12,492 nucleotides of DNA from Deinococcales bacterium (GTDB lineage: Bacteria > Deinococcota > Deinococci > Deinococcales > JAAFIG01). The stretch spans positions 1 to 12,492 of the forward strand of contig JAYWGM010000100.1 of the NCBI GenBank assembly GCA_043778225.1, given 5' to 3'. Position 1 is the first letter of the stretch; every line of letters begins with the position of its first letter. The position numbers and the translations under genes are program-made. Positions 21 to 12,492 of this stretch are shown in pieces. The notes below the pieces were generated by a model. The model saw nothing but the letters and a program-made list of their open reading frames with translations. It did not search any database and was not told the origin of the DNA.

Positions 21-98
21 AAGTACATTGTTGACGAGTGCGGAGACTCTTTGGAGCGAAGCGGAAAATAGTCAAAGCATTTAGTAAACAATGTACTT
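21..98. repeat. Long imperfect inverted repeat/hairpin directly downstream of the aldolase gene (REP-like element and/or terminator)
   Basis: AAGTACATTGTT (21-32) is the exact reverse complement of AACAATGTACTT (87-98). Pairing continues inward with mismatches, and a GCGAAGC mini-hairpin lies near the apex (56-62). Confidence 0.7.
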
Positions 99-978
99 AA
101 ACTAAATCAGCCACACTTTGCAGCAATTTTTCGATGGCAATGTTGGTCTCGGCATCGACATCCAAAAGCGGCGCTCGAGGATAGCCAGCACTGACCTCAA
201 GTAAACGTAAAGCAGCCTTTAAGCCGGGGACACCAAAATCTCGAGTTACGGCATACGACAGTGGGTTGCTGAGGCGTTGAAGCTCGAGGGCGCGTTCCAA
301 GTCCTTAGCATCATAAGCTGCCATAATCGCCTGAAAGACTTTAGGAATGATATTCCCAGCCGCCAGAATTGCGCCATGCGCTCCTACCGATAAGGCGGGC
401 AAAAGGGTTGGCGCATTGCCCGTTAATAGATTAAAACCATTTGGAGTGACTCGAGCAATTTCGGTAAAATTCATGATGTCGCCGCTTGAATCCTTGACCC
501 CAGCCACATTGGGGTGCATTCCCATGCGGCTAAACCAAGCGGGCGCATGGCTAATTCCAGAAACTTGTGGAATGTTATAGACATAGACTGGAATCGGACT
601 CGAGTTCGCCACCGTCATAAAATGGGTCTCGAGAACATTGGGGGTCATGCTGCCACGATTATAAAACGGGGCAATCACCAAGGCGGCATCTGCGCCAGCC
701 TCAGAGGCATCACGGCAGCGTTCAATCACATGAGCCGTGGCTTCGCCACCAGCCCCAGCAATCATGGTTTTATGGGCTGGAATGGCTTCTCTGGCGGCAG
801 CCAGCACCAGTTGGCGTTCGGCTTCATCGAGGTAGGCAGCTTCGCCGTTGCTGCCAAGAATCAAGAAGCCATCGACATTTGGCTCGAGCCATGCAATCAA
901 GTTTTGCAGCGCGGGCAAATCGAGCGAACCATCTTTTTTGAAGGGCGTGGGAACAGGCGGGAACAGTCCTTTTAGCAT
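97..978 (-). CDS. DapA/DHDPS-family class I aldolase, 4-hydroxy-2-oxoglutarate aldolase (HOGA)-like
   Basis: 293 aa with GLFPPVPTPF, GSNGE (HOGA-type, not the DHDPS GTTGE), YNIP, Schiff-base Lys in GVKDSSGD, and C-terminal VTRDFGVPGLK...PRAPL. Confidence 0.88.
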   Translation of the reverse strand: MLKGLFPPVPTPFKKDGSLDLPALQNLIAWLEPNVDGFLILGSNGEAAYLDEAERQLVLAAAREAIPAHKTMIAGAGGEATAHVIERCRDASEAGADAALVIAPFYNRGSMTPNVLETHFMTVANSSPIPVYVYNIPQVSGISHAPAWFSRMGMHPNVAGVKDSSGDIMNFTEIARVTPNGFNLLTGNAPTLLPALSVGAHGAILAAGNIIPKVFQAIMAAYDAKDLERALELQRLSNPLSYAVTRDFGVPGLKAALRLLEVSAGYPRAPLLDVDAETNIAIEKLLQSVADLV

Positions 979-984
979 TTTTGT

Positions 985-993
985 AGTCTAGCA
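985..993 (-). promoter_or_regulatory. Extended -10 element (TGcTAGACT) of a probable leaderless promoter
   Basis: TAGACT ends 6 nt before the ATG at 978. No Shine-Dalgarno is visible. Confidence 0.65.
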
Positions 994-995
994 TT

Positions 996-2072
996 TTATC
1001 TCGCGTTCTCGAGTCTGGCTTGGTCTATTTGCAGGGTCAATACATCCGTCATGTCTAAATATCCATGCTCGAGTTTGGGCAAGCGGGCAGTAATATCCGA
1101 CTCGAGTTTCAAAAAGAACGCCAACTCGTTGGGGTAAGTCACTTCGGGGCGACTGGCAAGCATCGCCGCATGGCGAATTCCTGTGCTGGTGCTGGCTTGT
1201 GAGCCAATCATGATGCCTTTTTGGGCGCTTTGGGCTAGGCTAATCATCTCGAGGCTTTCGGTAAAACCATTGCGTGCTGTTTTGATGTTCAAAATATCGA
1301 AAGTGTCAAAATCGAGTTCGCGCTCCAAGTCGAGCCGTGTAAAACAAGAATCATCAGCAATTATCGGCAAAATTGCTTGGCGTTTTAATTCGGCTCTGGC
1401 TTTGATTTGCCGCACAGGCAGAGGCTCTTCGACATACAAAAGTCCAGCTTTCTGCATGGCTGCTAAAGCCAGAGCAGCTTTTTCTGGCTCGAGTGTTTCG
1501 TTGCTGTCGGCATAGAGCTTGACCATTTCGCCAAACTCGGATTTTAAGGTTTTAATTATCTCGAGATCGCTTTTGGTGTTGCGCCCAACCTTAACTTTTA
1601 AGACCCGCACCCCAGCTTGCACGACTTCCTTGGCTTCTTGCAGCATTGTGTCAAAACTAGCAATACCCAAAATAAAACTGGTCTCGAGTTTGGTTTGTAC
1701 CCCACCAAGTAACGCCAAAAGTGGTGTCTCCAAAAAGGCGGCTCGAGCTTCCCAGAGTGCCATATCGAGTGCGCCTTTGGCGCAATTGTTGTTTGGTAGG
1801 CTCGAGAGTATATTTTGCAGTCCTGCCACATCAGTAATCTCGAGTTCACACAGCCGTGGCTCGAGTAGTCGAATCGCGGCTTTGATGCTGTCGATTGTTT
1901 CGCCATAAATCGTTGGGCGTGGTGGCGCTTCGGCTGTACCAATCATGCCATTTTCGAGGTGAACCCGAATTAAACAATGCTCGGCTCGAGCCAACTGCCC
2001 ATGTTTACCCCAAGCTAGAGGACTTTTGAGGCGCAAAGAAAATGGAGTCACCTCGAGTTTAGAGATTTTCAT
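996..2072 (-). CDS. Enolase superfamily, muconate lactonizing enzyme (MLE) subgroup protein; substrate unknown
   Basis: N-terminal capping domain (GTAEA..P, AKGALDMALWE), KVK motif, metal ligands D (YADSN), E (EEP) and D (ADD), second Lys in NIKTAR. Start placed at ATG 2072 because it forms an ATGA overlap with the upstream stop. Confidence 0.88.
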   Translation of the reverse strand: MKISKLEVTPFSLRLKSPLAWGKHGQLARAEHCLIRVHLENGMIGTAEAPPRPTIYGETIDSIKAAIRLLEPRLCELEITDVAGLQNILSSLPNNNCAKGALDMALWEARAAFLETPLLALLGGVQTKLETSFILGIASFDTMLQEAKEVVQAGVRVLKVKVGRNTKSDLEIIKTLKSEFGEMVKLYADSNETLEPEKAALALAAMQKAGLLYVEEPLPVRQIKARAELKRQAILPIIADDSCFTRLDLERELDFDTFDILNIKTARNGFTESLEMISLAQSAQKGIMIGSQASTSTGIRHAAMLASRPEVTYPNELAFFLKLESDITARLPKLEHGYLDMTDVLTLQIDQARLENAR

Positions 2073-2791
2073 GTTTGCATCCAATCGCGGATATGCTGGG
2101 CGATTTTATCGGCTGGCTCGAGGGTCGTGTCTTGGTACAGCACACGGCGTGGCTCGAGGGTTTGCAAAAACGTATTGGCGGCTTTTGGGTCATAATTTTG
2201 GCGCTCGGTCACGACAATTCGCACCTTGGCTTCGAGTTCGGCTGGGTCAGCCTTGATTGCCTCGAGTTGAGAAATTTCTTGGACTGAAAAAATGTTTTCG
2301 ATTCCTGCTATTTGTGCCAAATTGGTGTTGCGGCGTTGCACCGCATCAAAACCATCGTTGCGCCCTAAAAGACGCTCGACTCGAGTCAGGTCTGGGGCAT
2401 CGAGCGCAATAAATCTGGCTTGAGGAAAGGCTTTGGCGGCATATTCGACTTCGTTTAAGCCGCGCAAACCATCAAATAAAATCGGCGCAGCCAGTGCCAC
2501 ATAAATCTGCTCTAAAGCCTGTGCCATGCCGCCGGGGTGGGTCTGGCGGTAGGTAGCGGTGCGTTCAAAACGGCTTTCGCGGTCAGAAATTTTTTCGCCA
2601 CCAAAAATAACCGCATCAGTCACAACCCGTCGGTCGGGCAGGCTCGAGAAATGAACCCCAAGCTGGTGCAGCGCTTCTAAAGTGGTGCTTTTGCCAACCC
2701 CAGTTACGCCAACCAAAATATAAAACTCGAGGTTTTTCAGGCTCGAGTGATTTGGGGCTAACCCTAAATGCACCCCAGCACTAAGCTGCAT
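2069..2791 (-). CDS. P-loop NTPase / nucleoside-monophosphate-kinase-like protein
   Basis: Walker A GVTGVGKST, ILFDGLRG strand and LDAPDLTRVERL motif typical of the NMP/CoA kinase fold. Start placed at MQLSAG (2791); the track's longer N-terminus is a shadow of the upstream gene. Confidence 0.78.
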   Translation of the reverse strand: MQLSAGVHLGLAPNHSSLKNLEFYILVGVTGVGKSTTLEALHQLGVHFSSLPDRRVVTDAVIFGGEKISDRESRFERTATYRQTHPGGMAQALEQIYVALAAPILFDGLRGLNEVEYAAKAFPQARFIALDAPDLTRVERLLGRNDGFDAVQRRNTNLAQIAGIENIFSVQEISQLEAIKADPAELEAKVRIVVTERQNYDPKAANTFLQTLEPRRVLYQDTTLEPADKIAQHIRDWMQT

Positions 2792-3122
2792 CGCTTTTGA
2801 CCGTTGGGGCTGGAGTTGGTGCGGCGGCTGGTGCTTCGGCTGGTTTGCTGCTTTCGGCTGGTTTACTTTCGCTTTGGGTGTTTGGCTCGCTCGGGCTTTC
2901 GGTTTTGGCTTCCGGTTTGGCGGCTTCGGGCTTGCTGCTGGCGGTGTTTTTTGAGTCGTTGGCATAAAAGCCAGAACCCTTAAAAGAAATCGCAGGTTTG
3001 CCAATCAAGCGCTTGACCGGTTCGCCAGTCTTAGGGTGATGGGTCAGGGCAGCTTCACTGATACGCTGCTCGAGGTTAAAGGTGTCGCCACTTTCGATTC
3101 CTTGGTACAAATAAACGGGCAT
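2781..3122 (-). CDS. FmdB-family (CxxC_CXXC_SSSS-type) putative regulatory protein, Cys-less variant with a Pro/Ala/Ser/Glu-rich tail
   Basis: MPVYLY...F...Q...LTHHPKTG.PVKRLI..PAISFKGSGFYANDS matches the FmdB family pattern. Confidence 0.85.
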   Translation of the reverse strand: MPVYLYQGIESGDTFNLEQRISEAALTHHPKTGEPVKRLIGKPAISFKGSGFYANDSKNTASSKPEAAKPEAKTESPSEPNTQSESKPAESSKPAEAPAAAPTPAPTVKSDAA

Positions 3123-3161
3123 GGTCTAGTTGTAGCATTGATTGTTTTTCTTGCCAAGAGC

Positions 3162-3167
3162 TAAACT
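3162..3167 (+). promoter_or_regulatory. -10 element TAAACT of a probable leaderless promoter
   Basis: Ends 7 nt before ATG 3175. Confidence 0.6.
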
Positions 3168-3174
3168 GCTTTCT

Positions 3175-3414
3175 ATGCCGATTGTTGTTGCGTTTTTGGT
3201 GGTTGGATTGCTGTTTTTGCTTTTGCTGCGCTATGAGCAAAAAAAAGGCTTAAAAGTCAAACGAAGCGAAACCGACTTACAAGCCATGGACGATGGGGCA
3301 ACCTTTGGTGGCTTGGTTGGACAAGCCCAAATGGCAAAAATGGGCATCGAGCCAGATGATGTCCGCCAACGCGAGGATACCGAATTCAAGAAATTTAAGT
3401 TTGACGATGAGTGA
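3175..3414 (+). CDS. Small single-pass membrane protein, hypothetical (79 aa)
   Basis: N-terminal hydrophobic helix (IVVAFLVVGLLFLLLL) followed by a basic patch and a charged tail. It has a -10 box at leaderless spacing and a hairpin after the stop. Confidence 0.7.
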   Translation: MPIVVAFLVVGLLFLLLLRYEQKKGLKVKRSETDLQAMDDGATFGGLVGQAQMAKMGIEPDDVRQREDTEFKKFKFDDE

Positions 3415-3425
3415 AGGTTAAAGCG

Positions 3426-3501
3426 AAGGTTAAAAGGGAAAAAGTAGAAAAGGTCAAAAGCTAAGACCAACTTTTAACCTTTTAACCTTTTAACCTTTTC
3501 C
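3426..3501. terminator. Hairpin built from inverted 8-bp tandem repeats between convergent genes (probable bidirectional terminator)
   Basis: Left arm AAGGTTAA/AAGGGAAA/AAGTAGAA/AAGGTCAA/AAG (3426-3460), loop 3461-3470, right arm CTT(TTAACCTT)x3 TTCC (3471-3501). Confidence 0.7.
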
Positions 3502-3503
3502 AC

Positions 3504-3872
3504 TCACTCCAAAGGTGCATGATAACGAACCTCAGCCTCGAGTCGGCTAAGTGCCAAAAACGCTTCTCGAGTCAGGTGCTTGTGACTTCGCCACGGGCGG
3601 TACTCGCGTTTGCCTTCCATCAGTCCGTAACCTCGCATTCCAAGCTCGAGCCAGCGCACAGTCTTGTTTTCGAGCAGGGCTTGTAGGGTCTCGAGGGCGT
3701 TTTGATGGTCGGTGTCGCCGTAAATCCGAATCGCTCGGGTGTGGGTCTGGTCGTGGGGGTACAACTCGAGTTTGCAAGGCTCGAGCGGGTTTAAAATGGT
3801 GTTTGTCGCTATGGGTTGGACAAAAACCAAGTAGGCATCCAGTTCTGTACCGTGGGTAAAGCGTGGTTTCAT
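3504..3872 (-). CDS. Hypothetical protein (122 aa), translationally coupled to the HD-GYP gene
   Basis: ATGA overlap with the upstream stop (3869-3872), globular composition, ends at the convergent hairpin. No family recognised. Confidence 0.7.
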   Translation of the reverse strand: MKPRFTHGTELDAYLVFVQPIATNTILNPLEPCKLELYPHDQTHTRAIRIYGDTDHQNALETLQALLENKTVRWLELGMRGYGLMEGKREYRPWRSHKHLTREAFLALSRLEAEVRYHAPLE

Positions 3873-5584
3873 GTTTTGGCTCGCTCTCGATTGAGTTTTT
3901 GGCTGATTTTTGTCAGGGCAGCCACAACGCTTGGGTCAAATAAATAATTGCTGTGGGCTTCGATTTCGCCCAAGGCATCTTCAAAAGTCCAAGCGGGCTT
4001 ATAGGGACGCGGGCTGAGGAGGGCATCAAAAGTGTCCGCCACGCCAACAATTCTGCCCACCAAAGGGATTTCTTCGCCGCGTAAACGCCTAGGATAACCC
4101 GAACCATTCCAGCGTTCGTGGTGTGTCAGGGCAATGATTCGTGCCATCTCAAGGAGCGGCGAACCACTGCCCTCGAGCATCTGCGCCCCGAGGGCTGCGT
4201 GGGTTTGCATTAAAGTCCATTCTTCGCGGTCGAGTCCAGATGGCTTAAACAAAATCGAATCTGGAATGGCAATTTTACCAATGTCGTGCAGCCGAGCCGC
4301 AAATTTTAAGCGCTCGGTTTCTTCGTGGCTGAGTCCAAGTTCTTGGGCAATCGCTCCCGAGATTTCACCAACGCGGCTGGTGTGCAAAGAAGTTTCGTTA
4401 TCCCGAAATTCGGCAACTCGAGCCAAGCGCTCAAACAATTCTAAGCGGGTGGCTTCTAAACTCGCCTCGAGTTCGATGTTGCGAAGCCGTTCAATTCGGG
4501 CTTCGAGTTGGGCAGTTTGGACTTTGGTGATTTCGACTTGATTGAGGCTGGCGTTGATTTGCTTTGCCAATGCCCCGAGTTCGTCTGCGCCGCGCACCTG
4601 AACGCGGTGGGTGACATCGCCCGAAAGGGCAATTTGCCCGAGTTCTTGATGTAAGCGGGTTAGCCTCGAGAGTAAGCCAAATTCCAAAAGGGCAAAAATC
4701 AGGGCGGTCACCAGAATCCCAGCAATCAATAAAGACCAGCGCAGGCGCTCGAGGTTATCCTGTGCCGACTGAAAAGTAGTTCGCTCGGTTTGCACCTCGA
4801 GCAACAAAACATTGTCTTGGTTGGGGTCGGTCAGAAGGGTATAGCCGTCTATTTTGGCTTGGCTGATTGGGTCAAAAATTTGTTGTTCTCCATTGCGTAA
4901 ACGTGCCACAATGGCTTGTTGGATTGGACTGAAATCTGGCATTTGTTGTTCGACCAATTGAATTTTAACTTGGGTCAGTTCAGATAATTTTTTCAAGGCT
5001 GCCAAATCGAGTTTTCTGACCATGGTCAGTTGCCCAATGGCAGGGCGCATTTGACTCGAGGGAATAATCGGGGCTTGGGCAACAAAATAAAGGGCATCTT
5101 GGAAAGTCACCAAACCGCTTTTGATTGGCATTTTGGTCATGCGCCGTAAATTTCGGGTGGTTTCGTGCCAAAGCCAGCGCTCTGGGTGAATAAATACCCC
5201 CAAGGCTTCGTAGGAGGCGCGATACTCGGTTAAATTTAAGCGTTGGCGGGTTAATAAAATACGGTCACGCTTTTCGATGATAAAAAATTCAACATTGAGT
5301 ATCTGTAGATTAGAAGTCAGGTTGCGCTCGACAAAGCGAGGATTTTGACCAAGCACATACTCGTAAGCCTCATCAAAAACCGACCAATCAAGGGTGGTGG
5401 TCTCGAGTTGCTGGAGTTCGCCAGTCACAGCATTTTTGGCACGGGTTAAATTGCGGCTCAGGTCGTCGCGCTCGAGTTGCAGAGCGGCACTCAGGCTGCG
5501 TTCTGCCAATAAAGCGTAAACGGTCAGCATCAGGATACAAACACCGATGCTGACCGTTAGAATTGTTTTCAGACGCAAGTTCAC
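3869..5584 (-). CDS. Membrane-bound CHASE4-HAMP-HD-GYP cyclic-dinucleotide phosphodiesterase
   Basis: Two TM helices flank a CHASE4-like sensor (DWSVFDEAYEYV). HAMP (RL..L...GD...RV...GADELGALA), HTSRV, LHDIGK, HHERWNGSGYP, RIVGVADTFDAL and FDP are present. GTG start. Confidence 0.92.
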   Translation of the reverse strand: MNLRLKTILTVSIGVCILMLTVYALLAERSLSAALQLERDDLSRNLTRAKNAVTGELQQLETTTLDWSVFDEAYEYVLGQNPRFVERNLTSNLQILNVEFFIIEKRDRILLTRQRLNLTEYRASYEALGVFIHPERWLWHETTRNLRRMTKMPIKSGLVTFQDALYFVAQAPIIPSSQMRPAIGQLTMVRKLDLAALKKLSELTQVKIQLVEQQMPDFSPIQQAIVARLRNGEQQIFDPISQAKIDGYTLLTDPNQDNVLLLEVQTERTTFQSAQDNLERLRWSLLIAGILVTALIFALLEFGLLSRLTRLHQELGQIALSGDVTHRVQVRGADELGALAKQINASLNQVEITKVQTAQLEARIERLRNIELEASLEATRLELFERLARVAEFRDNETSLHTSRVGEISGAIAQELGLSHEETERLKFAARLHDIGKIAIPDSILFKPSGLDREEWTLMQTHAALGAQMLEGSGSPLLEMARIIALTHHERWNGSGYPRRLRGEEIPLVGRIVGVADTFDALLSPRPYKPAWTFEDALGEIEAHSNYLFDPSVVAALTKISQKLNRERAKT

Positions 5585-5592
5585 GTGAAGCT

Positions 5593-5598
5593 ATTGTA
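5593..5598 (-). promoter_or_regulatory. -10 element TACAAT of a probable leaderless promoter
   Basis: Ends 8 nt before GTG 5584. No SD. Confidence 0.6.
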
Positions 5599-5604
5599 CC
5601 TTAT

Positions 5605-5673
5605 ACCGAATTGACTTCATCACTTTCGTTTGACTAAAAAACAGTCAAACTGTCGTTCTTGTGCCAATTCGGT
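5605..5673. repeat. Nested inverted repeats (MITE/REP-like palindromic element)
   Basis: ACCGAATTG (5605-5613) / CAATTCGGT (5665-5673) enclose GTTTGACT (5628-5635) / AGTCAAAC (5643-5650). Confidence 0.6.
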
Positions 5674-5733
5674 TTTGTTATCACTCCTGTTCTTGACCTA
5701 AACGCGCACCTGACGGGCAAGGTCGCTTCGTCG

Positions 5734-5764
5734 GTCAATCAGTCAAAATACACGACTGATTGAC
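5734..5764 (-). terminator. 11-bp perfect hairpin downstream of the RND gene
   Basis: GTCAATCAGTC-N9-GACTGATTGAC, 11 nt past the RND stop. There is no U-tract on the minus strand, so terminator function is uncertain. Confidence 0.5.
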
Positions 5765-5775
5765 ATAATTTTGAA

Positions 5776-8700
5776 TTAATCTCCAAAGACCTCGAGCATT
5801 TGCTGTTGCTTGGCGGCTTGGGCTTCTAACCCTTTGGATTTGCGTCTGCCGTAGACCGCCAAATACAGGGCTGGCACAACAAATAGGGTCAACATCGTGC
5901 TGGCGGTCAAGCCACCAATCACGGTTAAAGCCAGTGGTTTACCAACAATGCCAGAGCTTGGTCCAAATAACTCGAGTGCGGCTGGCGACAAGGCTAAAAT
6001 GGTGGTTAAAGCAGTCATCACAATTGGACGAACCCGTCTCGAGCCACCTTCGATGATTGCTTGACGTAAATCCATGCCTTTTTGCTGTAATGTGTCCACC
6101 AAGTCTATTAACACAATTGCGTTGGTCACAACAATACCGACCAGCAGCAAAAATCCAAAGAAAACGGCTAAGTCAATCGGTGTTTGGGTGATAAACAACA
6201 ACGGAAACGCCCCAATCACGACCAATGGAATCGAAGCCAGCAACAAAAACGGCGTTAAAAGACTGCGGAAAGTCGCCACCATAATCACGTACACAAGCGC
6301 AATTGCTGCCAGAATCGCCACGCCAAGGGCTTGGAAAGATTCGGCTTGAGCCGCACTGACTCCACCGATTTTCCAAGTTGCGCCTTCGGGCAGGGTTAAA
6401 GCGGCTACGGCTTCGCGTAATTTGCTGGTACTCGAGCCGACGTTATTGCCGACAGGTTCTGCCGTTACAATTGCGGTGCGCTCGCCATCGATACGGCGCA
6501 CACTGCTTGGGGCGGGTTCTTGGGTGACTTCGGCAACTTCGGAAAGTCGAATGCTTGTCCCACCTGAAATCGGACGGAGTTTAAGGTTTTTAAGTTGCTC
6601 GAGCGTCTGGTATGCGCCTCTTGGAGCGCTCAATAAGACCTCGACACTGCTTTCGTTGACACTTAAATTGATGCTCTGAGCGCCTTGCAGTGCCTGACGC
6701 ACTGTGCCACCAACCGCCACTGGAATAATACCTTTTTCGTAAGCCAGTTTTTGATTGACTCGGACTACAAATTCTGGATTGACGGCATCAAGGTTACTCG
6801 AGGGATTCCGTACTTCGGGGACTTTATTAACCGCTGCCAGCACTTGTTCGGTGGCTAACCGCAGGGTTTTGTTGTTGGCGGCTTGAATTTGCACTTCTAA
6901 ATTCTGCGAGAAACCACCGCCACCCGCCCCAGCTTGCACACTGAGTTTGGTATTCGGCACGATTCCAGCCAGTTCTTTTTCGAGCAGTGGCACAAGTTCT
7001 TTGCGGATATTGATTTTTTTACCGTTTAATTCGCCCGGTAAAATCGTAAACGAGGCACTTGAAGTTCCGCCGCCGCCGCCACCCAAGCCATTGTTTCCGC
7101 CAGCACTGCCAATGACGGTTTGGTAGGCTTTGATCTGACCACTTTGGCGCAACGCCTCGAGTTTGGTTTCGACTGCCACAGAACTCTGGTTAATCCGTGC
7201 CAAACGTGTGCCATCTTGGAATTTAAGGCTGACTTCGGCGGTTGCTGCTTCGCCACCACCAACAAAATTGGTTGGAATACCACTCACTAAGGCACTTGTA
7301 CCAATTAAAAGCACCACGGCGGTAATCAGCACAATGGCTTTATGACCAGTTGCCCAAGTGATGGCAGCGCGGTAGGTGCGGGTAAATTTGTCCTCGTCGG
7401 TTTCTTTGGGTGCAGTTTTTAAGAACAGACTCGAGAACAACGGAATGACCGTAAAAGCAACCACCAAACTTGCCAGAATCGAATAGGTTACGGCTAACGC
7501 CAGTGGTCGGAAGAACTCGCCAGCGATTCCCCCCACGAAAGCCAAGGGTAAAAACACGGCAACGGTCGTAATCGTACTGGCAGTAATCGGCACAATCACT
7601 TCTCGAGCGCCTTCATAAGAGGCTTTGAGGGGTGCATCGCCCAGTGCCAAGCGGTGATAGATATTTTCGATCACCACAATTGCATCGTCAATCACACGAC
7701 CAATCGCAATCGCTAAACCACCAAGGGTCAAAACGTTCAGGGTAAAGCCTTGAATTCCTAAGAACAATAAGCCCACCAGAATCGAAAGTGGAATTGAAAT
7801 GGCAGTAATCATCGTGCTGCGTAAATTGCGTAAAAAGATAAAGACGACCAAAACCGCAAACAAACCACCGGCGATACCTTCTTTAATTAAGGATTCGACA
7901 CCTTTGGCAATCGGTTCGCCTTGGTCAGATAAAACCGTAATTTTGCCATCCAAGGCTTTCTCGAGTTCCGCAATTTCTTTTTTGACCGCATTGGCAACGG
8001 TTAAAGTATTGCCCTGTTGGGTCTTAAAAATGCTCAGACCAACCGCCGTCACACCATTGAGGCGGGTATACGACTTAGGGTCTTCGGTGGTCAGTTCAAT
8101 TTTGGCAATTTCGGCGAGTGTGACTGGCACAAGTTTTATACCAGAAGCTGTCGTTGTTCCACCAAAACCACTTGGCGCACCACCAAAGCCGCTTGGAGCG
8201 CCACCGCTCGAGAGACCACTAGGAGCGCTAAAACCACTAGGAGCGCCACCGCTTGGCAATTGAAAAGCTGGCTGAGTGGCAACACTCGAGAAACCACTGG
8301 GAGCGTCACCACTTGGCATTTGAAAACCTGCGGGTGGCTGCCCTGTCGGGGCTTGTCCAGCAAATCCAGCAGAAGCCTGTCCAGCAAAACCTGCTGGCGG
8401 CTGCCCTGTTGGGGTTTGTCCAGCAAAATCTGCTGGTGGCTGCCCTGTTGGGGCTTGTCCAGCAAATCCGGCTGGGGGCTGACTGGTTACTGGGGCTTGA
8501 CCCACTCCACCATCTGGACTTTGAGCAGCTTTCAAAGCCGCCGTGGCTTTGGCATCGGCAGCTTTAGCAGTGGCTAAGGCTTGCCCAGCAATGGCTGTGG
8601 CTTTACCGGCGGCAGTGGCTGCACCTGTGGCAATGCCTCGAGCCGCACTTGCCTGTCCAAGGGCTTGACCCGCTAAACCAGCCGCTTGCCCTGCGGCGGC

Positions 8701-9645
8701 GGCTGCACCCGTGGCAATGCCACGCGCTGCGCCAGCTTGCCCAAGAGCTTGACCTGCTAAACCGGCGGCTTGCCCGGCAGTCTGTAAAGCTGTACCCGCC
8801 AACTGGGCGATACCTTGGAGCGCTTGGGCTTGGGCTTTGGCGGCAGCAATTGCGGCTTCTCGAGCTTGCTTAGAAAGTTTCTCGACTTCTTTGGGGTCTG
8901 GCTGGGCGGTCACGACCACACCTGCCAAGGAAGCCACACTTTGCGCCACGCTATCAAGTTTAACTGGCACATTTAAGCCGCCATCCTGAACGCTGCCGAC
9001 AGGAAACGATAAACTCGAGGCGCGAAGGGCTTGGTTAATCCCATTGGCATCGAGTTTGTACTTGCTCATTTTTTGTTCGTCCAATGTAACCCGAATTTGA
9101 GCTTTGGGCGCTCCAGTCACATCGACCCTCGAGACCCCAGCAATCCCCTCGAGTTTTGGCAGTACCCGAGTGTCCACCCGTTCTTTAAGTTGGGTGACTG
9201 GGATATTGCTCGAGAGTGCCAAGCGCATCACGGGAGCATCGCCAAAGCGAATTGCTGAAACATTGGTTTCTTGGACACCATCTGGGAAATTACCGCGCAC
9301 CCGATTGATGGCTTGTTGAATCTGCTGTTCTTTTTCACGTAAGTTGGCACTGAAGGCAAAACCCAGCACCACCACCGAAACATTGGGGCTGCTGGTACTG
9401 GAAATAGATTCAAGGTCGGCGATGCCTTGCAAGGCAGTTTCGATCGGGCGAGTGACTTGCGATTCCACAATTTCAGGACCCGCCAAAGGATACGGCGTAA
9501 TGACCGTAATGACTGGAAAACGAATTTCGGGCAGTAATTCTTGTTTGATGCTAAAACTGGTAAAAACCCCAGCTAAAACAATCAAAACTGTTACCAGTAC
9601 AAGCACACTGGCGTTTTTGAGCGAAAATTTAATCAGCGAATTCAT
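5776..9645 (-). CDS. RND-family efflux transporter (AcrB/SwrC-like) with a large low-complexity insertion
   Basis: ELLPEI.FPVITVIT.YP.A.PE.VE..VT.PIE, TM4 GRVIDDAIVVIENI, TT.AVFLP, TM10 GIVVTNAIVLID, R.RPI.MTALTT, PLA.TVIGGL..ST.LTLFVVP. SD AAGGAG lies upstream. Confidence 0.95.
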   Translation of the reverse strand: MNSLIKFSLKNASVLVLVTVLIVLAGVFTSFSIKQELLPEIRFPVITVITPYPLAGPEIVESQVTRPIETALQGIADLESISSTSSPNVSVVVLGFAFSANLREKEQQIQQAINRVRGNFPDGVQETNVSAIRFGDAPVMRLALSSNIPVTQLKERVDTRVLPKLEGIAGVSRVDVTGAPKAQIRVTLDEQKMSKYKLDANGINQALRASSLSFPVGSVQDGGLNVPVKLDSVAQSVASLAGVVVTAQPDPKEVEKLSKQAREAAIAAAKAQAQALQGIAQLAGTALQTAGQAAGLAGQALGQAGAARGIATGAAAAAGQAAGLAGQALGQASAARGIATGAATAAGKATAIAGQALATAKAADAKATAALKAAQSPDGGVGQAPVTSQPPAGFAGQAPTGQPPADFAGQTPTGQPPAGFAGQASAGFAGQAPTGQPPAGFQMPSGDAPSGFSSVATQPAFQLPSGGAPSGFSAPSGLSSGGAPSGFGGAPSGFGGTTTASGIKLVPVTLAEIAKIELTTEDPKSYTRLNGVTAVGLSIFKTQQGNTLTVANAVKKEIAELEKALDGKITVLSDQGEPIAKGVESLIKEGIAGGLFAVLVVFIFLRNLRSTMITAISIPLSILVGLLFLGIQGFTLNVLTLGGLAIAIGRVIDDAIVVIENIYHRLALGDAPLKASYEGAREVIVPITASTITTVAVFLPLAFVGGIAGEFFRPLALAVTYSILASLVVAFTVIPLFSSLFLKTAPKETDEDKFTRTYRAAITWATGHKAIVLITAVVLLIGTSALVSGIPTNFVGGGEAATAEVSLKFQDGTRLARINQSSVAVETKLEALRQSGQIKAYQTVIGSAGGNNGLGGGGGGTSSASFTILPGELNGKKINIRKELVPLLEKELAGIVPNTKLSVQAGAGGGGFSQNLEVQIQAANNKTLRLATEQVLAAVNKVPEVRNPSSNLDAVNPEFVVRVNQKLAYEKGIIPVAVGGTVRQALQGAQSINLSVNESSVEVLLSAPRGAYQTLEQLKNLKLRPISGGTSIRLSEVAEVTQEPAPSSVRRIDGERTAIVTAEPVGNNVGSSTSKLREAVAALTLPEGATWKIGGVSAAQAESFQALGVAILAAIALVYVIMVATFRSLLTPFLLLASIPLVVIGAFPLLFITQTPIDLAVFFGFLLLVGIVVTNAIVLIDLVDTLQQKGMDLRQAIIEGGSRRVRPIVMTALTTILALSPAALELFGPSSGIVGKPLALTVIGGLTASTMLTLFVVPALYLAVYGRRKSKGLEAQAAKQQQMLEVFGD
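8324..8502 (-). repeat. Intragenic 39-bp (13-aa) tandem repeats GQAPTGQPPAGFA
   Basis: Units at about 8324-8362, 8386-8424, 8425-8463 and 8464-8502, plus one truncated unit. Confidence 0.9.
8617..8778 (-). repeat. Intragenic 84-bp (28-aa) tandem duplication AGQAAGLAGQALGQAxAARGIATGAA
   Basis: GGCTGCACC.GTGGCAATGCC starts at 8617 and at 8701 (period 84). The copies differ mostly at synonymous positions. Confidence 0.9.
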
Positions 9646-9676
9646 AAGTCTCTCCTTGAAGCTATTGTGGCTCGGC

Positions 9677-10195
9677 TTATTCAGCGTTGCGTCTTTTGTC
9701 GGTGCTTTGACGGTACTCGAGCATTCGATTAAGCATCGTTTGGTACATTCGTTCTAAAAGCAGCAATTCGGTTTGGTCGAGGTCGTGCATCGCCATGTGG
9801 TACTGGTTCATCAGGTGTGTCCGGATTTGTGCCACGTAATCAAAACCAGTCTGGGTTAAACGCACCCGTACAATTCGTCGGTCATCGGGGTCAGAAAAAC
9901 GCTCGATGGTTTGGCGTTCGACCAGTCCATCTACCAAACCAGTCAGGCTCGAGGGTGGCATTGCCAGCACTTCGGTCAGTTCGCGCATGGTTTTGGCAGC
10001 CTCCGAAAGCTCCTCGAGAATCATCCAGTGTGACAAAGACAATTTATCGCGCCCTAACCCTTCGATAAACATCTGCCGTCCATGATGCGAAATCTGATGC
10101 AGCAAGGTCACAATGTTGCTCTCGAGCGCCCCTCGAGGCTCTGGTGGGTCAAGGATTGTTCGAGTTACGATTTTTTCGTAGTCTGAATCATTCAT
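9677..10195 (-). CDS. MarR-family transcriptional regulator
   Basis: LS..HW.IL..L...T..EL...L....SSLT.LVD.LV...IER..DPDDRR...V.LT..G winged helix. Start placed at MNDSDY (10195), 7 nt after a TACTAT box. Confidence 0.92.
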   Translation of the reverse strand: MNDSDYEKIVTRTILDPPEPRGALESNIVTLLHQISHHGRQMFIEGLGRDKLSLSHWMILEELSEAAKTMRELTEVLAMPPSSLTGLVDGLVERQTIERFSDPDDRRIVRVRLTQTGFDYVAQIRTHLMNQYHMAMHDLDQTELLLLERMYQTMLNRMLEYRQSTDKRRNAE

Positions 10196-10202
10196 ACCTA
10201 GA

Positions 10203-10231
10203 ATAGTACGAAACTCGAAATAAATAAACAA
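10203..10231 (-). promoter_or_regulatory. marR promoter (-35 TTGTTT, 17-nt spacer, -10 TACTAT) with overlapping imperfect palindrome
   Basis: TAGTACG-N5-CGAAATA at 10204-10222 (5/7 match) overlaps the -10. Confidence 0.55.
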
Positions 10232-10273
10232 GGGAATAAGTCACAATTTCATGCTAACTTCAAACACCCAAGG

Positions 10274-10279
10274 TAAACT
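10274..10279 (+). promoter_or_regulatory. -10 element TAAACT of a probable leaderless promoter
   Basis: Ends 6 nt before ATG 10286. Confidence 0.6.
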
Positions 10280-10285
10280 GCCCTA

Positions 10286-10630
10286 ATGCGGGGTTTAGGA
10301 TTTAGGTTATTCAAGTGGTGGTGCGCTTTTGTTGCTCGGTGCTTTGAATCTCGAGACCACTCCCAAATACCCATTGGCAAACTCAAAAACATCAACCCAT
10401 GGCTGACTCAAGAACTCGAGAAAATTGGCATCAAAACCCGCACCGACTTGATTGAACTTGGTGCGCTCGAGACCTATCATCGTTTACTCCAAGCTAAGTC
10501 TCGAGTGAGTCACAATGCCCTGTTGAGGCTGCACGGCGCAATCACCGACCAGCCAATCGAAGAAATTTCGGACAAAGAAGTTGCTTATTTGCTCGAGGAA
10601 GCCCAAGCGCTTACGCCATTACTTTCTTGA
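10286..10630 (+). CDS. TfoX C-terminal-domain (helix-hairpin-helix-like) protein
   Basis: I..LKNI.P.L...L..IGI.T..DL..LGA..TY.RL.......N.L..L.GAI resembles TfoX_C, with an extra basic/hydrophobic N-terminal segment. Confidence 0.8.
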   Translation: MRGLGFRLFKWWCAFVARCFESRDHSQIPIGKLKNINPWLTQELEKIGIKTRTDLIELGALETYHRLLQAKSRVSHNALLRLHGAITDQPIEEISDKEVAYLLEEAQALTPLLS

Positions 10631-11173
10631 GAGTAAATCAATGCTGCTGCCGTCTTCGTTGATCGTGCGGACTGTGCCAATGCTTGGTACAAAATATAAA
10701 TCGGTGGTTGTGCTGCTGCCGTCGGCTTGATAAAAAGTCGAACGAATAATAAAAGCATTAAAACGCCCAGCCTTGACCTTGACCCCAGCCGTGCCGATGA
10801 CTTGGGTTGCCATCGTGATTTTTGCGCCACCGACATCAGAAACACTCTGCCACTGCATCCCCACTTTTAAGGGTGCTTTTGGATAGAGTATGAGCGGCGG
10901 GCTAAACTTATTGATTTGCTGCCCGACTTTGTTGCCCAAAAACGTTACCCCACTGGCATTGGAGACAATATAGTCTTCGCCAGCTAATTGGTCTTTGATG
11001 GTGGTTTGTAGAACCAAAACTTTGGTGTTAAAAACTGTGTCCTCGCGGGAATACTCTTTAATTTCGCCACTCGAGTAAACCCAGCGCATTCCAACTCGGG
11101 TTGGATAATAATTATTTTGGGCTTGGCTCGAGACCAATAAAAAGCCCAGCAACACGATTAAAGCTCGTTTCAT
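10619..11173 (-). CDS. Secreted beta-strand-rich protein of unknown function
   Basis: Signal peptide MKRALIVLLGFLLVSSQA; YYP...G..WVY, PL.VG..W, V.V.AG.F.A and YFVP.IG.V motifs; ATGA overlap with the proC stop. Confidence 0.8.
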   Translation of the reverse strand: MKRALIVLLGFLLVSSQAQNNYYPTRVGMRWVYSSGEIKEYSREDTVFNTKVLVLQTTIKDQLAGEDYIVSNASGVTFLGNKVGQQINKFSPPLILYPKAPLKVGMQWQSVSDVGGAKITMATQVIGTAGVKVKAGRFNAFIIRSTFYQADGSSTTTDLYFVPSIGTVRTINEDGSSIDLLSRK

Positions 11174-11958
11174 TTGTCTGCTCCTAATGCTTCTCCGCGC
11201 TCGGTGGCTGCCCGAACCGCCTCGATAACGGCAGCCCGAAAAGTATAGCGCTCGATTTCGGCAATCCCAGCGATGGTCGTGCCGCCCGGACTGGCGACTT
11301 CATCTTTAAGGATACTTGGATGCACCCGCCGCAACAACAATTCGCCAGTCGTAATCAGTAGTTTACCAGCTAACTCGATGGCCAACTTTCGACTCAGCCC
11401 CATGCGAACCCCGCCGTCTGCCAGTGCCTCAGCAAAAATCGCGGCATAGGCTGGACCTGAACCAACCATGCCCGTAAAGGTATTAAACAGTGTCTCGGGT
11501 AAATCGTAGACATCGCCAACCGCCGCAAATAAAGCCTGTGCAAACTCGAGGTCGCCGCTCTCGGCAGCTTCGGGCATACCAACCACGGCAGTCGCACTTT
11601 TATGGATGGTTGCGCCCAAATTTGGCATGGCACGCACCACCCGTCTCGAGCCGATGCGCTTGGACAACGAATTGAGGTTCACACCTGCCATGATGCTGAT
11701 GTACCCCGCGTTGGGGTGAGCAATCCACTCGGCAACTTCGGGGAAAACCTTGGGCTGGACGCAAATTAAAACCCGTTCGGCACTGCGAATATCGCTTCGA
11801 GCCAACAGTTTTACGCCGTGGCGTTCGGCAACTTCTGCTGCTTTACGGCTACTGCCACCGACCACCCCAACCTCCGAGACCTCGAGCAACCTCGAGCCAA
11901 TTACGCCCTCGAGAATTGCCTCGCCCATTTTGCCGACTCCGACCACGCCTAGTTTCAT
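11170..11958 (-). CDS. proC: Pyrroline-5-carboxylate reductase
   Basis: GVGKMG Rossmann motif, ISIMAGV, VRAMPN, GSGPAY, DGGV..GL, V.SPGGTT..G. Start at MKLG (11958), 7 nt after TATAAT. Confidence 0.96.
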   Translation of the reverse strand: MKLGVVGVGKMGEAILEGVIGSRLLEVSEVGVVGGSSRKAAEVAERHGVKLLARSDIRSAERVLICVQPKVFPEVAEWIAHPNAGYISIMAGVNLNSLSKRIGSRRVVRAMPNLGATIHKSATAVVGMPEAAESGDLEFAQALFAAVGDVYDLPETLFNTFTGMVGSGPAYAAIFAEALADGGVRMGLSRKLAIELAGKLLITTGELLLRRVHPSILKDEVASPGGTTIAGIAEIERYTFRAAVIEAVRAATERGEALGADK

Positions 11959-11965
11959 TGCGGGC

Positions 11966-11971
11966 ATTATA
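11966..11971 (-). promoter_or_regulatory. Consensus -10 TATAAT of a leaderless proC promoter
   Basis: Perfect TATAAT 7 nt upstream of ATG 11958. Confidence 0.72.
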
Positions 11972-12167
11972 GCCCCCAATCCGCCATTTTACGCATCACA
12001 ACCAGAAGGGTAGATGATAAATTTATGGGGTTGCTCTTTATTGAACGCCCTCCCTCGAGCAACCAAAAAACTTGCCAAATGTACGAGCGCCACCAAAAAA
12101 ACTTTACTCCGGCAAAATCCTCTCGTTCGAGTTTATGGTCTCGAGCTAAAAATCATGTTGCCAAAAA

Positions 12168-12398
12168 ATGTTCAAATGCCAAATTTGTGGTTCAAACACC
12201 ACCAGCCGCACCCCAGCCAAGCGCATCACCCTCGAGTCTCGAGTACACCAATTCCCAGAGCGCAAAAAAGTCCATTTCGTACCCGAGCATAAACGCAAGA
12301 AAAACGCTCCAGAATATGCCGACGACCCCGGTGGTACTGGAATGCAGATTGTACGAGAAGCACTGGTTTGCCCGCAGTGTGCGGCGGCTCGAGGCTAA
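12168..12398 (+). CDS. Small Cys4 zinc-ribbon protein (CxxC...CPxC), hypothetical
   Basis: 76 aa, MFKCQICG at the N-terminus and DPGGTG.QIVRE..VCPQC at the C-terminus; basic. Confidence 0.72.
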   Translation: MFKCQICGSNTTSRTPAKRITLESRVHQFPERKKVHFVPEHKRKKNAPEYADDPGGTGMQIVREALVCPQCAAARG

Positions 12399-12492
12399 GA
12401 GCGTGTTTATAAAGTGGGTAAAGTCGGTCAGAATTAAGCTGTGAAACAAAAAACCTATACCAGTAGCCTTACCCGTGAACAGTTTAAGCGTC

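Follow-up and report, generated by a model that had tools for sequence, protein, structure and literature searches.

CTCGAG is a highly iterated palindrome in the genomes of a Deinococcales family and a graded trait of the order

CTCGAG sites and genes in the window

The palindromic hexamer CTCGAG is unusually frequent in a 12,492-nucleotide stretch of DNA from a Deinococcales bacterium (GenBank assembly GCA_043778225.1, contig JAYWGM010000100.1), hereafter the window. The window contained exactly 83 copies (6.6 per kb), the first at position 174 and the last at 12388-12393, in agreement with the count given in an earlier note on this DNA. In 200 dinucleotide-preserving shuffles of the window the mean was 1.76 sites and the maximum 6, and none of the 200 reached 83. 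That note had proposed a genome-wide process resembling the one behind highly iterated palindrome 1 (HIP1) of cyanobacteria. Analysis of this genome and its relatives established CTCGAG as a genuine highly iterated palindrome. The field of sites and the open reading frames (ORFs) that it crosses are listed below; frame 0 is the phase in which the site reads Leu-Glu, and the site itself, being a palindrome, has no strand.

174..12393, no strand: field of 83 CTCGAG sites, a bare hexamer (all positions listed)
97..978, minus strand: DHDPS-family gene with 7 sites, 3, 3 and 1 in frames 0, 1 and 2 (Pfam PF00701)
996..2084, minus strand: MR/MLE enolase-superfamily gene with 13 sites, 10 Leu-Glu, 2 in frame 1 and 1 in frame 2 (Pfam)
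2069..3004, minus strand: AAA_18-domain gene with 7 sites (Pfam)
3069..3074, no strand: the sole site outside the listed ORFs (ORF overlay)
3504..3872, minus strand: hypothetical ORF of 122 amino acids (369 bp) with 6 sites, 16 per kb (no Pfam family)
3869..5584, minus strand: CHASE4-HAMP-HD-GYP signalling gene with 9 sites, zero in 3786-4171 (Pfam)
5776..9645, minus strand: AcrB-type RND transporter gene with 18 sites, 6, 3 and 9 in frames 0, 1 and 2 (Pfam)
9677..10231, minus strand: MarR-family regulator gene with 5 sites (Pfam)
10286..10630, plus strand: TfoX_C-domain gene with 5 sites (Pfam PF04994, E 2.3e-15)
10619..11173, minus strand: hypothetical ORF of 184 amino acids with 2 sites (ORF listing)
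11170..11979, minus strand: pyrroline-5-carboxylate reductase gene with 5 sites (Pfam)
12025..12444, plus strand: hypothetical ORF of 139 amino acids, possibly no gene, with 5 sites including the CTCGAGNCTCGAG doublet at 12231/12238 (ORF listing)

Eighty-two of the 83 sites thus fall within 11 listed ORFs, the exception being 3069. The peptides quoted in the earlier note were read correctly, with PRA at 174, TRD at 240 and ARV at 450 in frame 1, NSS at 599 in frame 2 and LE at 883 in frame 0. The AcrB-type gene served as the basis of a presence/absence analysis over four species, described below.

Two further features of the window were recorded. The C-terminal TfoX domain encoded at 10286-10630 is known in competence regulators. 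No match to Rfam was obtained in the window at gathering thresholds. The segments 1-100, 3420-3500, 5597-5780 and 12388-12492 are short non-coding dispersed repeats with dozens of matches (72-100% identity) elsewhere in this genome and in its congeners, frequently at the ends of contigs. Their contig depth in public runs was 3- to 8-fold higher, and they probably break the assembly.

Genome-wide excess independent of coding

The window is one contig of a 107-contig, 4.03-Mb assembly with a guanine-plus-cytosine (GC) content of 48.7% and 89% completeness. This genome contains 24,877 CTCGAG sites (6.17 per kb, about one per 160 bases), a ~27-fold excess over the ~930 expected from base frequencies. 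CTCGAG is the commonest of all hexamers, the runners-up being its own one-base extensions. The excess is not confined to the window's contig, as the 60 contigs printed of the 107 all carried 4.2-10.6 sites per kb. An expectation from a maximal-order Markov model was set aside as uninformative: the sub-words CTCGA, TCGAG and TCGA sit mostly inside the hexamer, and the observed/expected ratio came to ~1.16.

A crude gene call yielded 3,500 ORFs of at least 100 amino acids, covering 89% of the DNA and leaving 448 kb. Site density was 6.17 per kb in the ORFs and 6.15 per kb in the remaining DNA. Coding sites numbered 13,056, 4,468 and 4,632 in frames 0, 1 and 2, respectively. Synonymous shuffling within each gene, by which protein and codon usage are both kept, gave expectations of 1,667, 391 and 332 (five replicates). 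In total, 22,156 sites were observed versus 2,390 expected (9.3-fold), with an excess of 7.8- to 14-fold across frames and of 11- to 14-fold in frames 1 and 2. Shuffling of codon order gave 994 sites. Loss of the enrichment under such shuffles had been named beforehand as a possible refutation. The enrichment survived, inside and outside the Leu-Glu frame, and codon or amino-acid bias is insufficient to account for it.

The pressure for CTCGAG has also altered proteins. Leu-Glu dipeptides numbered 18,909, compared with 8,143 expected from amino-acid frequencies (2.3-fold), and Glu-Leu numbered 7,858. Leu-Glu makes up 59% of the coding sites, and CTCGAG encodes 13,056 of the 18,909 Leu-Glu pairs (69%). 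Elsewhere CTC provides 9.2% of Leu codons and GAG 22.6% of Glu codons, corresponding to an odds ratio of ~105 for Leu-Glu to be written as CTCGAG. The ten positions on either side of a site carried at most 0.035 bit genome-wide; flanks vary, as had been remarked for the window, and the unit is the bare hexamer.

Spacing and periodicity

The 24,770 spacings between sites had a mean of 160.6 and a coefficient of variation of 0.998. The variance-to-mean ratio of counts was 1.00 at 1 kb, 0.88 at 500 bp and 1.5-1.6 at 5-20 kb, and chi-square per degree of freedom was 1.19 among 1,272 genes of typical GC. The uneven density noted earlier in the window, with 13 sites in the MR/MLE gene, 6 in the 369-bp ORF and none in 3786-4171, was correctly described; given the coefficient of variation and the gene-level chi-square it amounts to sampling noise.

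Departures from randomness were found at short range. A spacing of 6 does not occur anywhere in the genome because it would make GAGCTC, which has 24 copies. Spacings of 8-20 bp were at 0.3-0.5 of expectation, with recovery by ~21 bp, a deficit that we infer to reflect avoidance of tight hairpins. The 7-bp doublet CTCGAGNCTCGAG is not avoided: its 123 copies have unique flanks, and some lie within terminator-like stems. Beyond ~20 bp, sites are independent of each other. No period between 4 and 50 kb was detected in 13 of the 14 contigs of at least 80 kb, which reach 154 kb at most, and the sole exception was the contig with the largest site-free island (5.6 kb). Near-Poisson spacing and the lack of periodicity speak against a chromosome organiser that depends on spacing.

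Site-poor DNA

Eleven gaps longer than 2 kb were observed versus 0.1 expected. The 16 gap regions fetched were mostly sharp-edged blocks of 28-40% GC, which encode exopolysaccharide and O-antigen enzymes, a GmrSD, HEPN and methyltransferase set, a NACHT NTPase, a KAP NTPase, an IrrE-like regulator and parts of two giant genes. Genes below 35% GC had 0.43 sites per kb, and density increased with GC to reach 7.9 per kb in genes of 53-56% GC. Recently acquired DNA is nearly site-free, and the pressure depends on residence time.

Two other explanations of the gaps were considered and rejected. The large gaps are not rRNA operons, as none of the 16 loci matched Rfam at gathering thresholds. Two stretches (L105 and L109) that resembled ORF-free DNA are parts of giant ORFs, contain no arrays and need no alternative genetic code. 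Giant ORFs were poorer in sites, with 2.4 per kb in G000:C93:9-15548 (5,180 codons, 45% GC) and 1.6 per kb in G000:C34:21834-33437 (3,868 codons, 43% GC), compared with 5.5-7.6 per kb in other large genes.

A GmrSD_N protein with a RiboL-PSP-type HEPN neighbour was present in two of the site-free low-GC islands, G000:C40:7694-11074 (L103) and G000:C86:24232-26127 (L113), and the C40 island adds an N4/N6 methyltransferase beside the pair. The GmrSD_N and HEPN pair is a recurring defence cassette.

RNA genes were likewise depleted. The 69 tRNA and tmRNA genes found by Aragorn contained 6 sites versus 34.9 expected, and the 23S rRNA of a closed genome of the family had 1 site in 2,933 nt, with 18-22 per 3,000 nt in its flanks. 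Strong sequence constraint in rRNA and tRNA genes thus opposes the CTCGAG pressure. Four of the six site-bearing tRNA genes (Ser, Cys, Glu and Met) cluster at G000:C19:9937-12769, which may be a gene array of separate origin. The comparison with rRNA and acquired DNA that the earlier note had suggested found all three of 23S rRNA, tRNA genes and low-GC islands nearly site-free.

Phage DNA

The same note had suggested a comparison with prophage DNA. Two prophages were located by a Terminase_6N search; searches with the HK97 capsid in this genome and with TerL_ATPase in five genomes found none. Both phage modules, which lie within family assemblies, were at or near the host site level, at 3.9-6.4 sites per kb overall, with zero GAGCTC and almost no GGCC. 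The first carried 78 sites in 12.1 kb, and the second 1.1-7.5 per kb depending on the gene. PHROGs matches on the modules included a major head protein, portal, large terminase, primase, DnaB-like helicase and replication initiator.

Relatives of the terminase in a viral collection were distant, with 25-36% identity near full length and higher values only over short C-terminal stretches, and 18 of 19 such loci had 0-1.3 sites per kb (L307 had 2.8). Viral contigs with three close sites were, among the matches listed, mostly high in GC with GAGCTC common too, a result that neither shows nor excludes free phages of the family. Five high-GC viral contigs (L179, L180, L163, L188 and L189) had 2.7-3.9 CTCGAG per kb and 0-2 GAGCTC; with the same word usage, they may be phages of moderately motif-rich high-GC lineages.

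Conservation and turnover of sites

To follow individual sites, 400 kb of the same-genus genome G006 was aligned to this genome, giving 190,553 columns at 72.4% identity. CTCGAG was retained in G006 at the homologous place for 716 of 1,250 sites (57%), and in the reverse direction for 716 of 1,169. The baselines were 19.6% for all hexamers and 16.6% for flanking hexamers. By class, conservation was 61% in frame 0, 57% in frame 1, 48% in frame 2 and 56% (28/50) in intergenic DNA, whereas other hexamers of the same class were conserved at 19-22%. One-off differences were mainly transitions. They were even over the C/G positions (23, 22, 27 and 21) and few at T2 and A5, so that no single hyper-mutable base stood out as expected at a 5-methylcytosine (m5C) site. 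In the 4.5-kb AcrB-MarR region of four congeners, 36 site columns were found, 8 shared by all four, 7 by three and 7 by two, while 14 (39%) were private to one. Sites are therefore protected, yet they are still gained and lost.

Distribution across the order

Orthologous loci of the MR/MLE gene carried 5.5-9.1 sites per kb in 15 Deinococcales records of metagenome-assembled genomes (45.6-60.5% GC), 0-0.29 per kb in Deinococcus records and 1.4-4.1 per kb in five Truepera/Trueperaceae records. Whole-genome counts were then compared over 301 genomes of the order, with rounded genome sizes and G250 left out. All 19 genomes of the window's family, in five genera, had 4.3-6.8 sites per kb. Genus g7 (86 genomes) had at most 0.27 per kb, and its family-mate G285 had 3.6. 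In genus g9, with genomes of 2 Mb, densities of 0.6-1.6 per kb were close to the reversed-word control, while its sister genera g13, g22 and g24 had 1.4-3.5 per kb with few GAGCTC. Family f2 ranged from 0.3 to 2.8 per kb.

Five moderately enriched genomes were examined in 80-kb samples. Frames 1 and 2 held 12-40 sites versus 0.8-11 in protein-preserving shuffles, and intergenic density was 2.0-3.0 per kb at 61-70% GC. The excess in these frames and between genes indicates the same phenomenon at lower strength, beyond Leu-Glu codon usage. Protein composition followed a similar gradient, with Leu-Glu observed/expected ratios of 2.3-2.6 in the family, 1.7-1.8 in G285, G200 and G206, 1.2 in G056, G147 and the Truepera(ceae) loci, and 0.97 in named Deinococcus. 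The named Deinococcus loci (L015-L035 and L055) had 0.05 sites per kb in 325 kb, and 2% of their Leu-Glu pairs were written as CTCGAG. The genus Deinococcus avoids CTCGAG, though CTC and GAG should be common codons at its GC. Avoidance and enrichment of one word thus occur in sister lineages, and CTCGAG enrichment is a graded trait of the whole order rather than of this lineage alone.

Other palindromes are shunned. GAGCTC had 0-25 copies in 16 of the 19 family genomes. The 4.03 Mb of this genome contained GGCC 131 times and GATC 2,061 times, 33 of the 64 hexamer palindromes had fewer than 100 copies, and GGGCCC, GACGTC and AGGCCT had one copy each. Such avoidance is consistent with numerous restriction systems; an EcoRV-family nuclease, for instance, is encoded here, and GATATC occurs 13 times. 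CTCGAG itself is enriched here, not avoided as would be expected of a restriction target.

Search for an agent

Candidate agents were sought in a panel of 43 genomes, of which 32 were motif-rich (the 19 of the family, G285, six f5 and six f2 genomes) and 11 motif-poor. These tests were made at the level of Pfam families with some genomes incomplete; the specificity of a methyltransferase is unreadable from its sequence, and different classes could share one specificity.

Methyltransferase matches in this genome comprised 8 Eco57I-type, 6 C5, 6 N4/N6, 8 N6_Mtase and 4 D12, with overlaps. Among the 32 motif-rich genomes, C5 was missing from 9 (including the family's G010 and the closed G056 and G147), alpha-class D12 from 6, beta-class N4/N6 from 4 (including the family's closed G033, and G285), N6_Mtase from 4 and gamma-class Eco57I-type from 2 (G128 and G002). 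G128, which is 99% complete and has 3.4 sites per kb, had a single beta-class match and nothing else. G285 (96% complete) had one C5 and two large gamma-class matches, a set disjoint from that of G128.

The alpha-class genes examined here adjoin an EcoRV-family nuclease, a PD-(D/E)XK nuclease in a low-GC island, or a low-GC ORF of no known family, and several methyltransferases reside in low-GC, site-poor islands. The six moderately motif-rich f5 genomes (G206, G152, G067, G116, G200 and G128) each had a beta-class N4/N6 match with closely similar scores (162-174 bits) in ORFs of 293-524 amino acids, which the two g9 genomes were without.

This genome encodes ComEC, DprA and a PilQ-type secretin. 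At G000:C89:21218-24828 (L290 2719-6329), dprA is followed by a glyoxalase-family gene on the opposite strand, a low-GC ORF of 277 amino acids with no known family and a D12-class adenine methyltransferase of 380 amino acids. This D12 enzyme, 1.6 kb from dprA, was considered as the agent and rejected: its low-GC neighbour ORF marks a probable restriction-modification insert, and, judged by score and length, probable orthologs were seen in only two other panel genomes.

RecC was found in none of the 43 genomes, although the control matched in E. coli. The AddAB-type nuclease domain (PDDEXK_1) was absent from this genome and from the closed G033, while AddAB-like pairs occurred in the motif-poor G283 and G141. 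The AddAB-type nuclease does not track the motif.

Discussion

Several known systems offer points of comparison. The uptake signal sequences (USS) of Pasteurellaceae and DNA uptake sequences (DUS) of Neisseriaceae are dispersed over coding and non-coding DNA, rare in acquired DNA and thought to be spread by molecular drive. They are asymmetric, 9-12 nt long with a flanking consensus, and occur about once per kb. CTCGAG resembles them in its genome-wide dispersal, its rarity in acquired DNA and the presence of competence genes, and differs as a bare 6-nt palindrome at 6 per kb without informative flanks. Chi is a short over-represented word that marks resident DNA in recombination through RecBCD or AddAB, with asymmetry, orientation bias and a modest excess. 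CTCGAG is palindromic and has no orientation, RecC was not found in the panel, and AddAB-type domains do not follow the motif. Very-short-patch repair by Dcm and Vsr raises CCWGG in E. coli, a sequence-specific mismatch correction that shifts word frequencies to a small extent. The process proposed here for CTCGAG is of that kind. Dcm/Vsr repair, however, needs a C5 enzyme, a class incompletely represented among the motif-rich genomes, together with Vsr.

The closest parallel is HIP1 (GCGATCGC) together with the alternate HIPs (Elhai 2015, PMC4390886; Xu, Lawrence and Durand 2018, PMC5861425). Like these words, CTCGAG is a short GC-rich palindrome in tens-fold excess, found in genes and spacers and in all frames, conserved above its surroundings, shared by a large clade with exceptions, and present in genomes that avoid other palindromes. 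HIP1 is over-represented 15-300 fold and periodic at 10-90 kb (PMC5861425), and its density is 300-2,700 per Mb (Table 2 of PMC4390886). CTCGAG differs in being a hexamer rather than an octamer, in its ~6,170 copies per Mb, in the phylum, in the lack of a shared methyltransferase class and in the lack of a 4-50 kb period in contigs of up to 154 kb. For HIPs, a word-specific methyltransferase is described wherever the word is abundant (PMC4390886); here no Pfam class was common to the motif-rich genomes, though different classes could have one specificity. Its effect on proteins is also strong, with Leu-Glu at 2.3 times expectation. A Chi-like role has been suggested for HIP1 (bioRxiv 10.1101/2024.09.10.611283). 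In Nocardia the same word, CTCGAG, is the target of an orphan methyltransferase and clusters near dnaA (Blow et al. 2016, PMC4752239). The two cases share the word and its tie to a function other than restriction, but the Nocardia sites form local clusters at the origin region, whereas here the genome is saturated. CTCGAG-specific m5C methylation is also described in Halorubrum (PMC8112702). No report of CTCGAG hyper-abundance in this phylum was found in a literature search that left most subscription journals and REBASE outside its reach.

What stands of the HIP1-like process proposed in the earlier note is a dispersed, frame-independent pattern that acts at the DNA level outside cyanobacteria; the agent named first, an orphan CTCGAG methyltransferase with biased repair, found no support. 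The explanation tentatively preferred, though held with somewhat less than even confidence, is that CTCGAG is a HIP-like word kept by a site-by-site fixation bias at the DNA level, most likely through biased mismatch correction or gene conversion toward the full hexamer by a conserved reader. Under this explanation a directional pressure would be exerted at the level of the DNA, one site at a time, and would reach any DNA that remains in the cell; alleles with the full hexamer would be fixed more often than their one-off neighbours. The ~105-fold odds of Leu-Glu being written as CTCGAG would correspond to a bias strength S of ~4-5. This bias would be balanced by decay through transitions and, in inflexible sequences such as rRNA and tRNA genes, by purifying selection. 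Most plausibly, a reader protein that is conserved across the order and need not be a methyltransferase would steer mismatch correction toward the full hexamer, whether in repair or in recombination among genome copies or with incoming DNA. The occurrence of the same word in several families at 45-70% GC points to such a conserved reader, and the Poisson statistics, with a density far above the saturation of the Elhai model, favour a site-autonomous process. The data establish the enrichment and its independence of coding, site conservation alongside turnover, absence of the word from newly acquired DNA, and its spread across the order. A fixation bias as the form of the pressure is what these data suggest, and biased repair or gene conversion, like the nature of the reader, is conjecture. 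The more specific proposition that a non-methyltransferase reader conserved in Deinococcales drives CTCGAG to saturation by biased mismatch correction or gene conversion is doubtful on present evidence.

A number of observations weigh against this explanation. No agent was found, and none of the five methyltransferase Pfam families was present in all 32 motif-rich panel genomes. A search of this genome (89% complete) for Vsr (PF03852) gave no match, although the control matched in three genomes, and the XhoI-family nuclease (PF04555) was found in none of the 43 genomes, although its control also matched none of 14 control genomes. The even spread of differences over the C/G positions means that no single mismatch is singled out for correction, and one-off neighbour words are not depleted in absolute terms, at 0.22-1.63 times matched hexamers. 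Conservation alone cannot tell drive from selection, since selection for function would give the same result. Xu et al. read the same conservation pattern in HIP1 as selection (PMC5861425), and later HIP1 studies favour a role in transformation over one in repair (bioRxiv 10.1101/2024.09.10.611283; PMC13756078).

Transformation is at the centre of an alternative in which CTCGAG, possibly methylated, marks the DNA of kin in natural transformation or stimulates recombination. Fragments that carry it would be imported or integrated preferentially, and the word would build up by molecular drive, as has been proposed for USS and DUS and now for HIP1. The competence genes encoded here agree with it, as do random dispersion in all frames, absence from acquired islands and conservation, which are all predictions of uptake-sequence drive, and one word across an order would suit exchange among relatives. 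A 6-bp word without flanking consensus, however, discriminates little per site, and an advantage at the level of the fragment should saturate and even out spacing, whereas the observed counts fit a Poisson distribution at 1 kb and are over-dispersed on larger scales. Competence in Deinococcus and Thermus is not known to involve any sequence preference, and the genera taken as these (g7 and g9) show no enrichment. The machinery of Chi is, moreover, absent or uncorrelated with the motif. On the other side, methylated HIP1 boosts transformation more than 100-fold in Synechococcus PCC 7002 (bioRxiv 10.1101/2024.09.10.611283), and pilus and competence genes co-vary with the abundance of HIP1, an association that misses significance for its methyltransferases (PMC13756078). 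Such an uptake or recombination mark is unlikely, though well short of negligible.

Selection of each site for a function, such as binding by an abundant nucleoid, chromosome-organising or protective protein, or a role as an RNA or DNA structure element, appears improbable. It would explain the ~3-fold higher conservation over flanks in every frame and in intergenic DNA, which is how Xu et al. took the HIP1 pattern (PMC5861425), and the site-rich resident phage DNA of the family. The deficit of hairpin-prone spacings with its spared 7-bp doublet, and the terminator-like stems made by some doublets, would also fit a structural role. Such functions are harder to reconcile with the lack of regular spacing or periodicity, with equal density in genes and spacers despite their very different constraints, with the 39% of site columns private to one of four congeners, and with sister lineages that do without CTCGAG or avoid it; nor did any candidate binding protein emerge.

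Slightly more improbable still is a ratchet of the type proposed by Elhai, in which strands are marked by a cognate CTCGAG methyltransferase, probably an orphan, and near-sites become full sites through methyl-directed mismatch repair. This is the published HIP model (PMC4390886); CTCGAG methyltransferases do exist, as the m5C enzyme of Halorubrum (PMC8112702) and the orphan of Nocardia (PMC4752239) show, and many methyltransferase genes are present here, whose different classes could in principle share specificity. Against it, every class is missing from some motif-rich genomes, G128 and G285 share none, and the alpha-class enzymes examined sit in ordinary restriction-modification pairs, one with the EcoRV-family nuclease. 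Several methyltransferases lie in site-poor islands, Vsr was not found in this genome, and differences show no position-specific C-to-T excess as m5C would leave. The 6 sites per kb, finally, are far above the ~1 per kb saturation predicted by that model (PMC4390886).

That the pattern merely follows from codon or amino-acid usage, or is an artefact of assembly or adapters, is refuted. The large Leu-Glu share of coding sites would fit the former, and the CTC and GAG codons common in high-GC relatives explain the g9 baseline. Neither accounts for the excess over protein- and codon-usage-preserving shuffles, above all in frames 1 and 2, or for the equality of intergenic and coding density. The same pattern recurs in independently assembled genomes from many records, and two public runs, each a possible source of this DNA, have contigs that match the window with 100% identity.

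For three decades HIP1, known from a single phylum, has had no accepted mechanism; a phenomenon of the same kind is now seen in another phylum. The CTCGAG case is simpler and stronger, being a bare hexamer at ~6 per kb that visibly reshapes proteins. It also offers a natural dose series within one order, from 4.3-6.8 per kb in the family through 1.4-3.6 in sister genera to very few in a large genus. Phylogenetic profiling aimed at the agent requires just such a contrast, which also separates the phenomenon from any single methyltransferase family. For the organisms concerned, CTCGAG sharply distinguishes resident DNA from recent acquisitions, and it likewise marks the phages living alongside these genomes. 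Caution is due when Leu-Glu content and codon usage in the clade are interpreted, as both are shaped by a force at the DNA level. If biased correction by a conserved reader is indeed responsible, it would be a sequence-specific molecular drive that rewrites ~10,000 dipeptides per proteome and also imprints resident phages. Such a drive would be tunable between lineages, from avoidance via 1-3 to 6-7 sites per kb, and its agent, given weaker forms in near-complete genomes of few contigs that may be isolates, would be findable by phylogenetic profiling and testable at the bench. It would then provide the first mechanistic answer to the 30-year HIP question.

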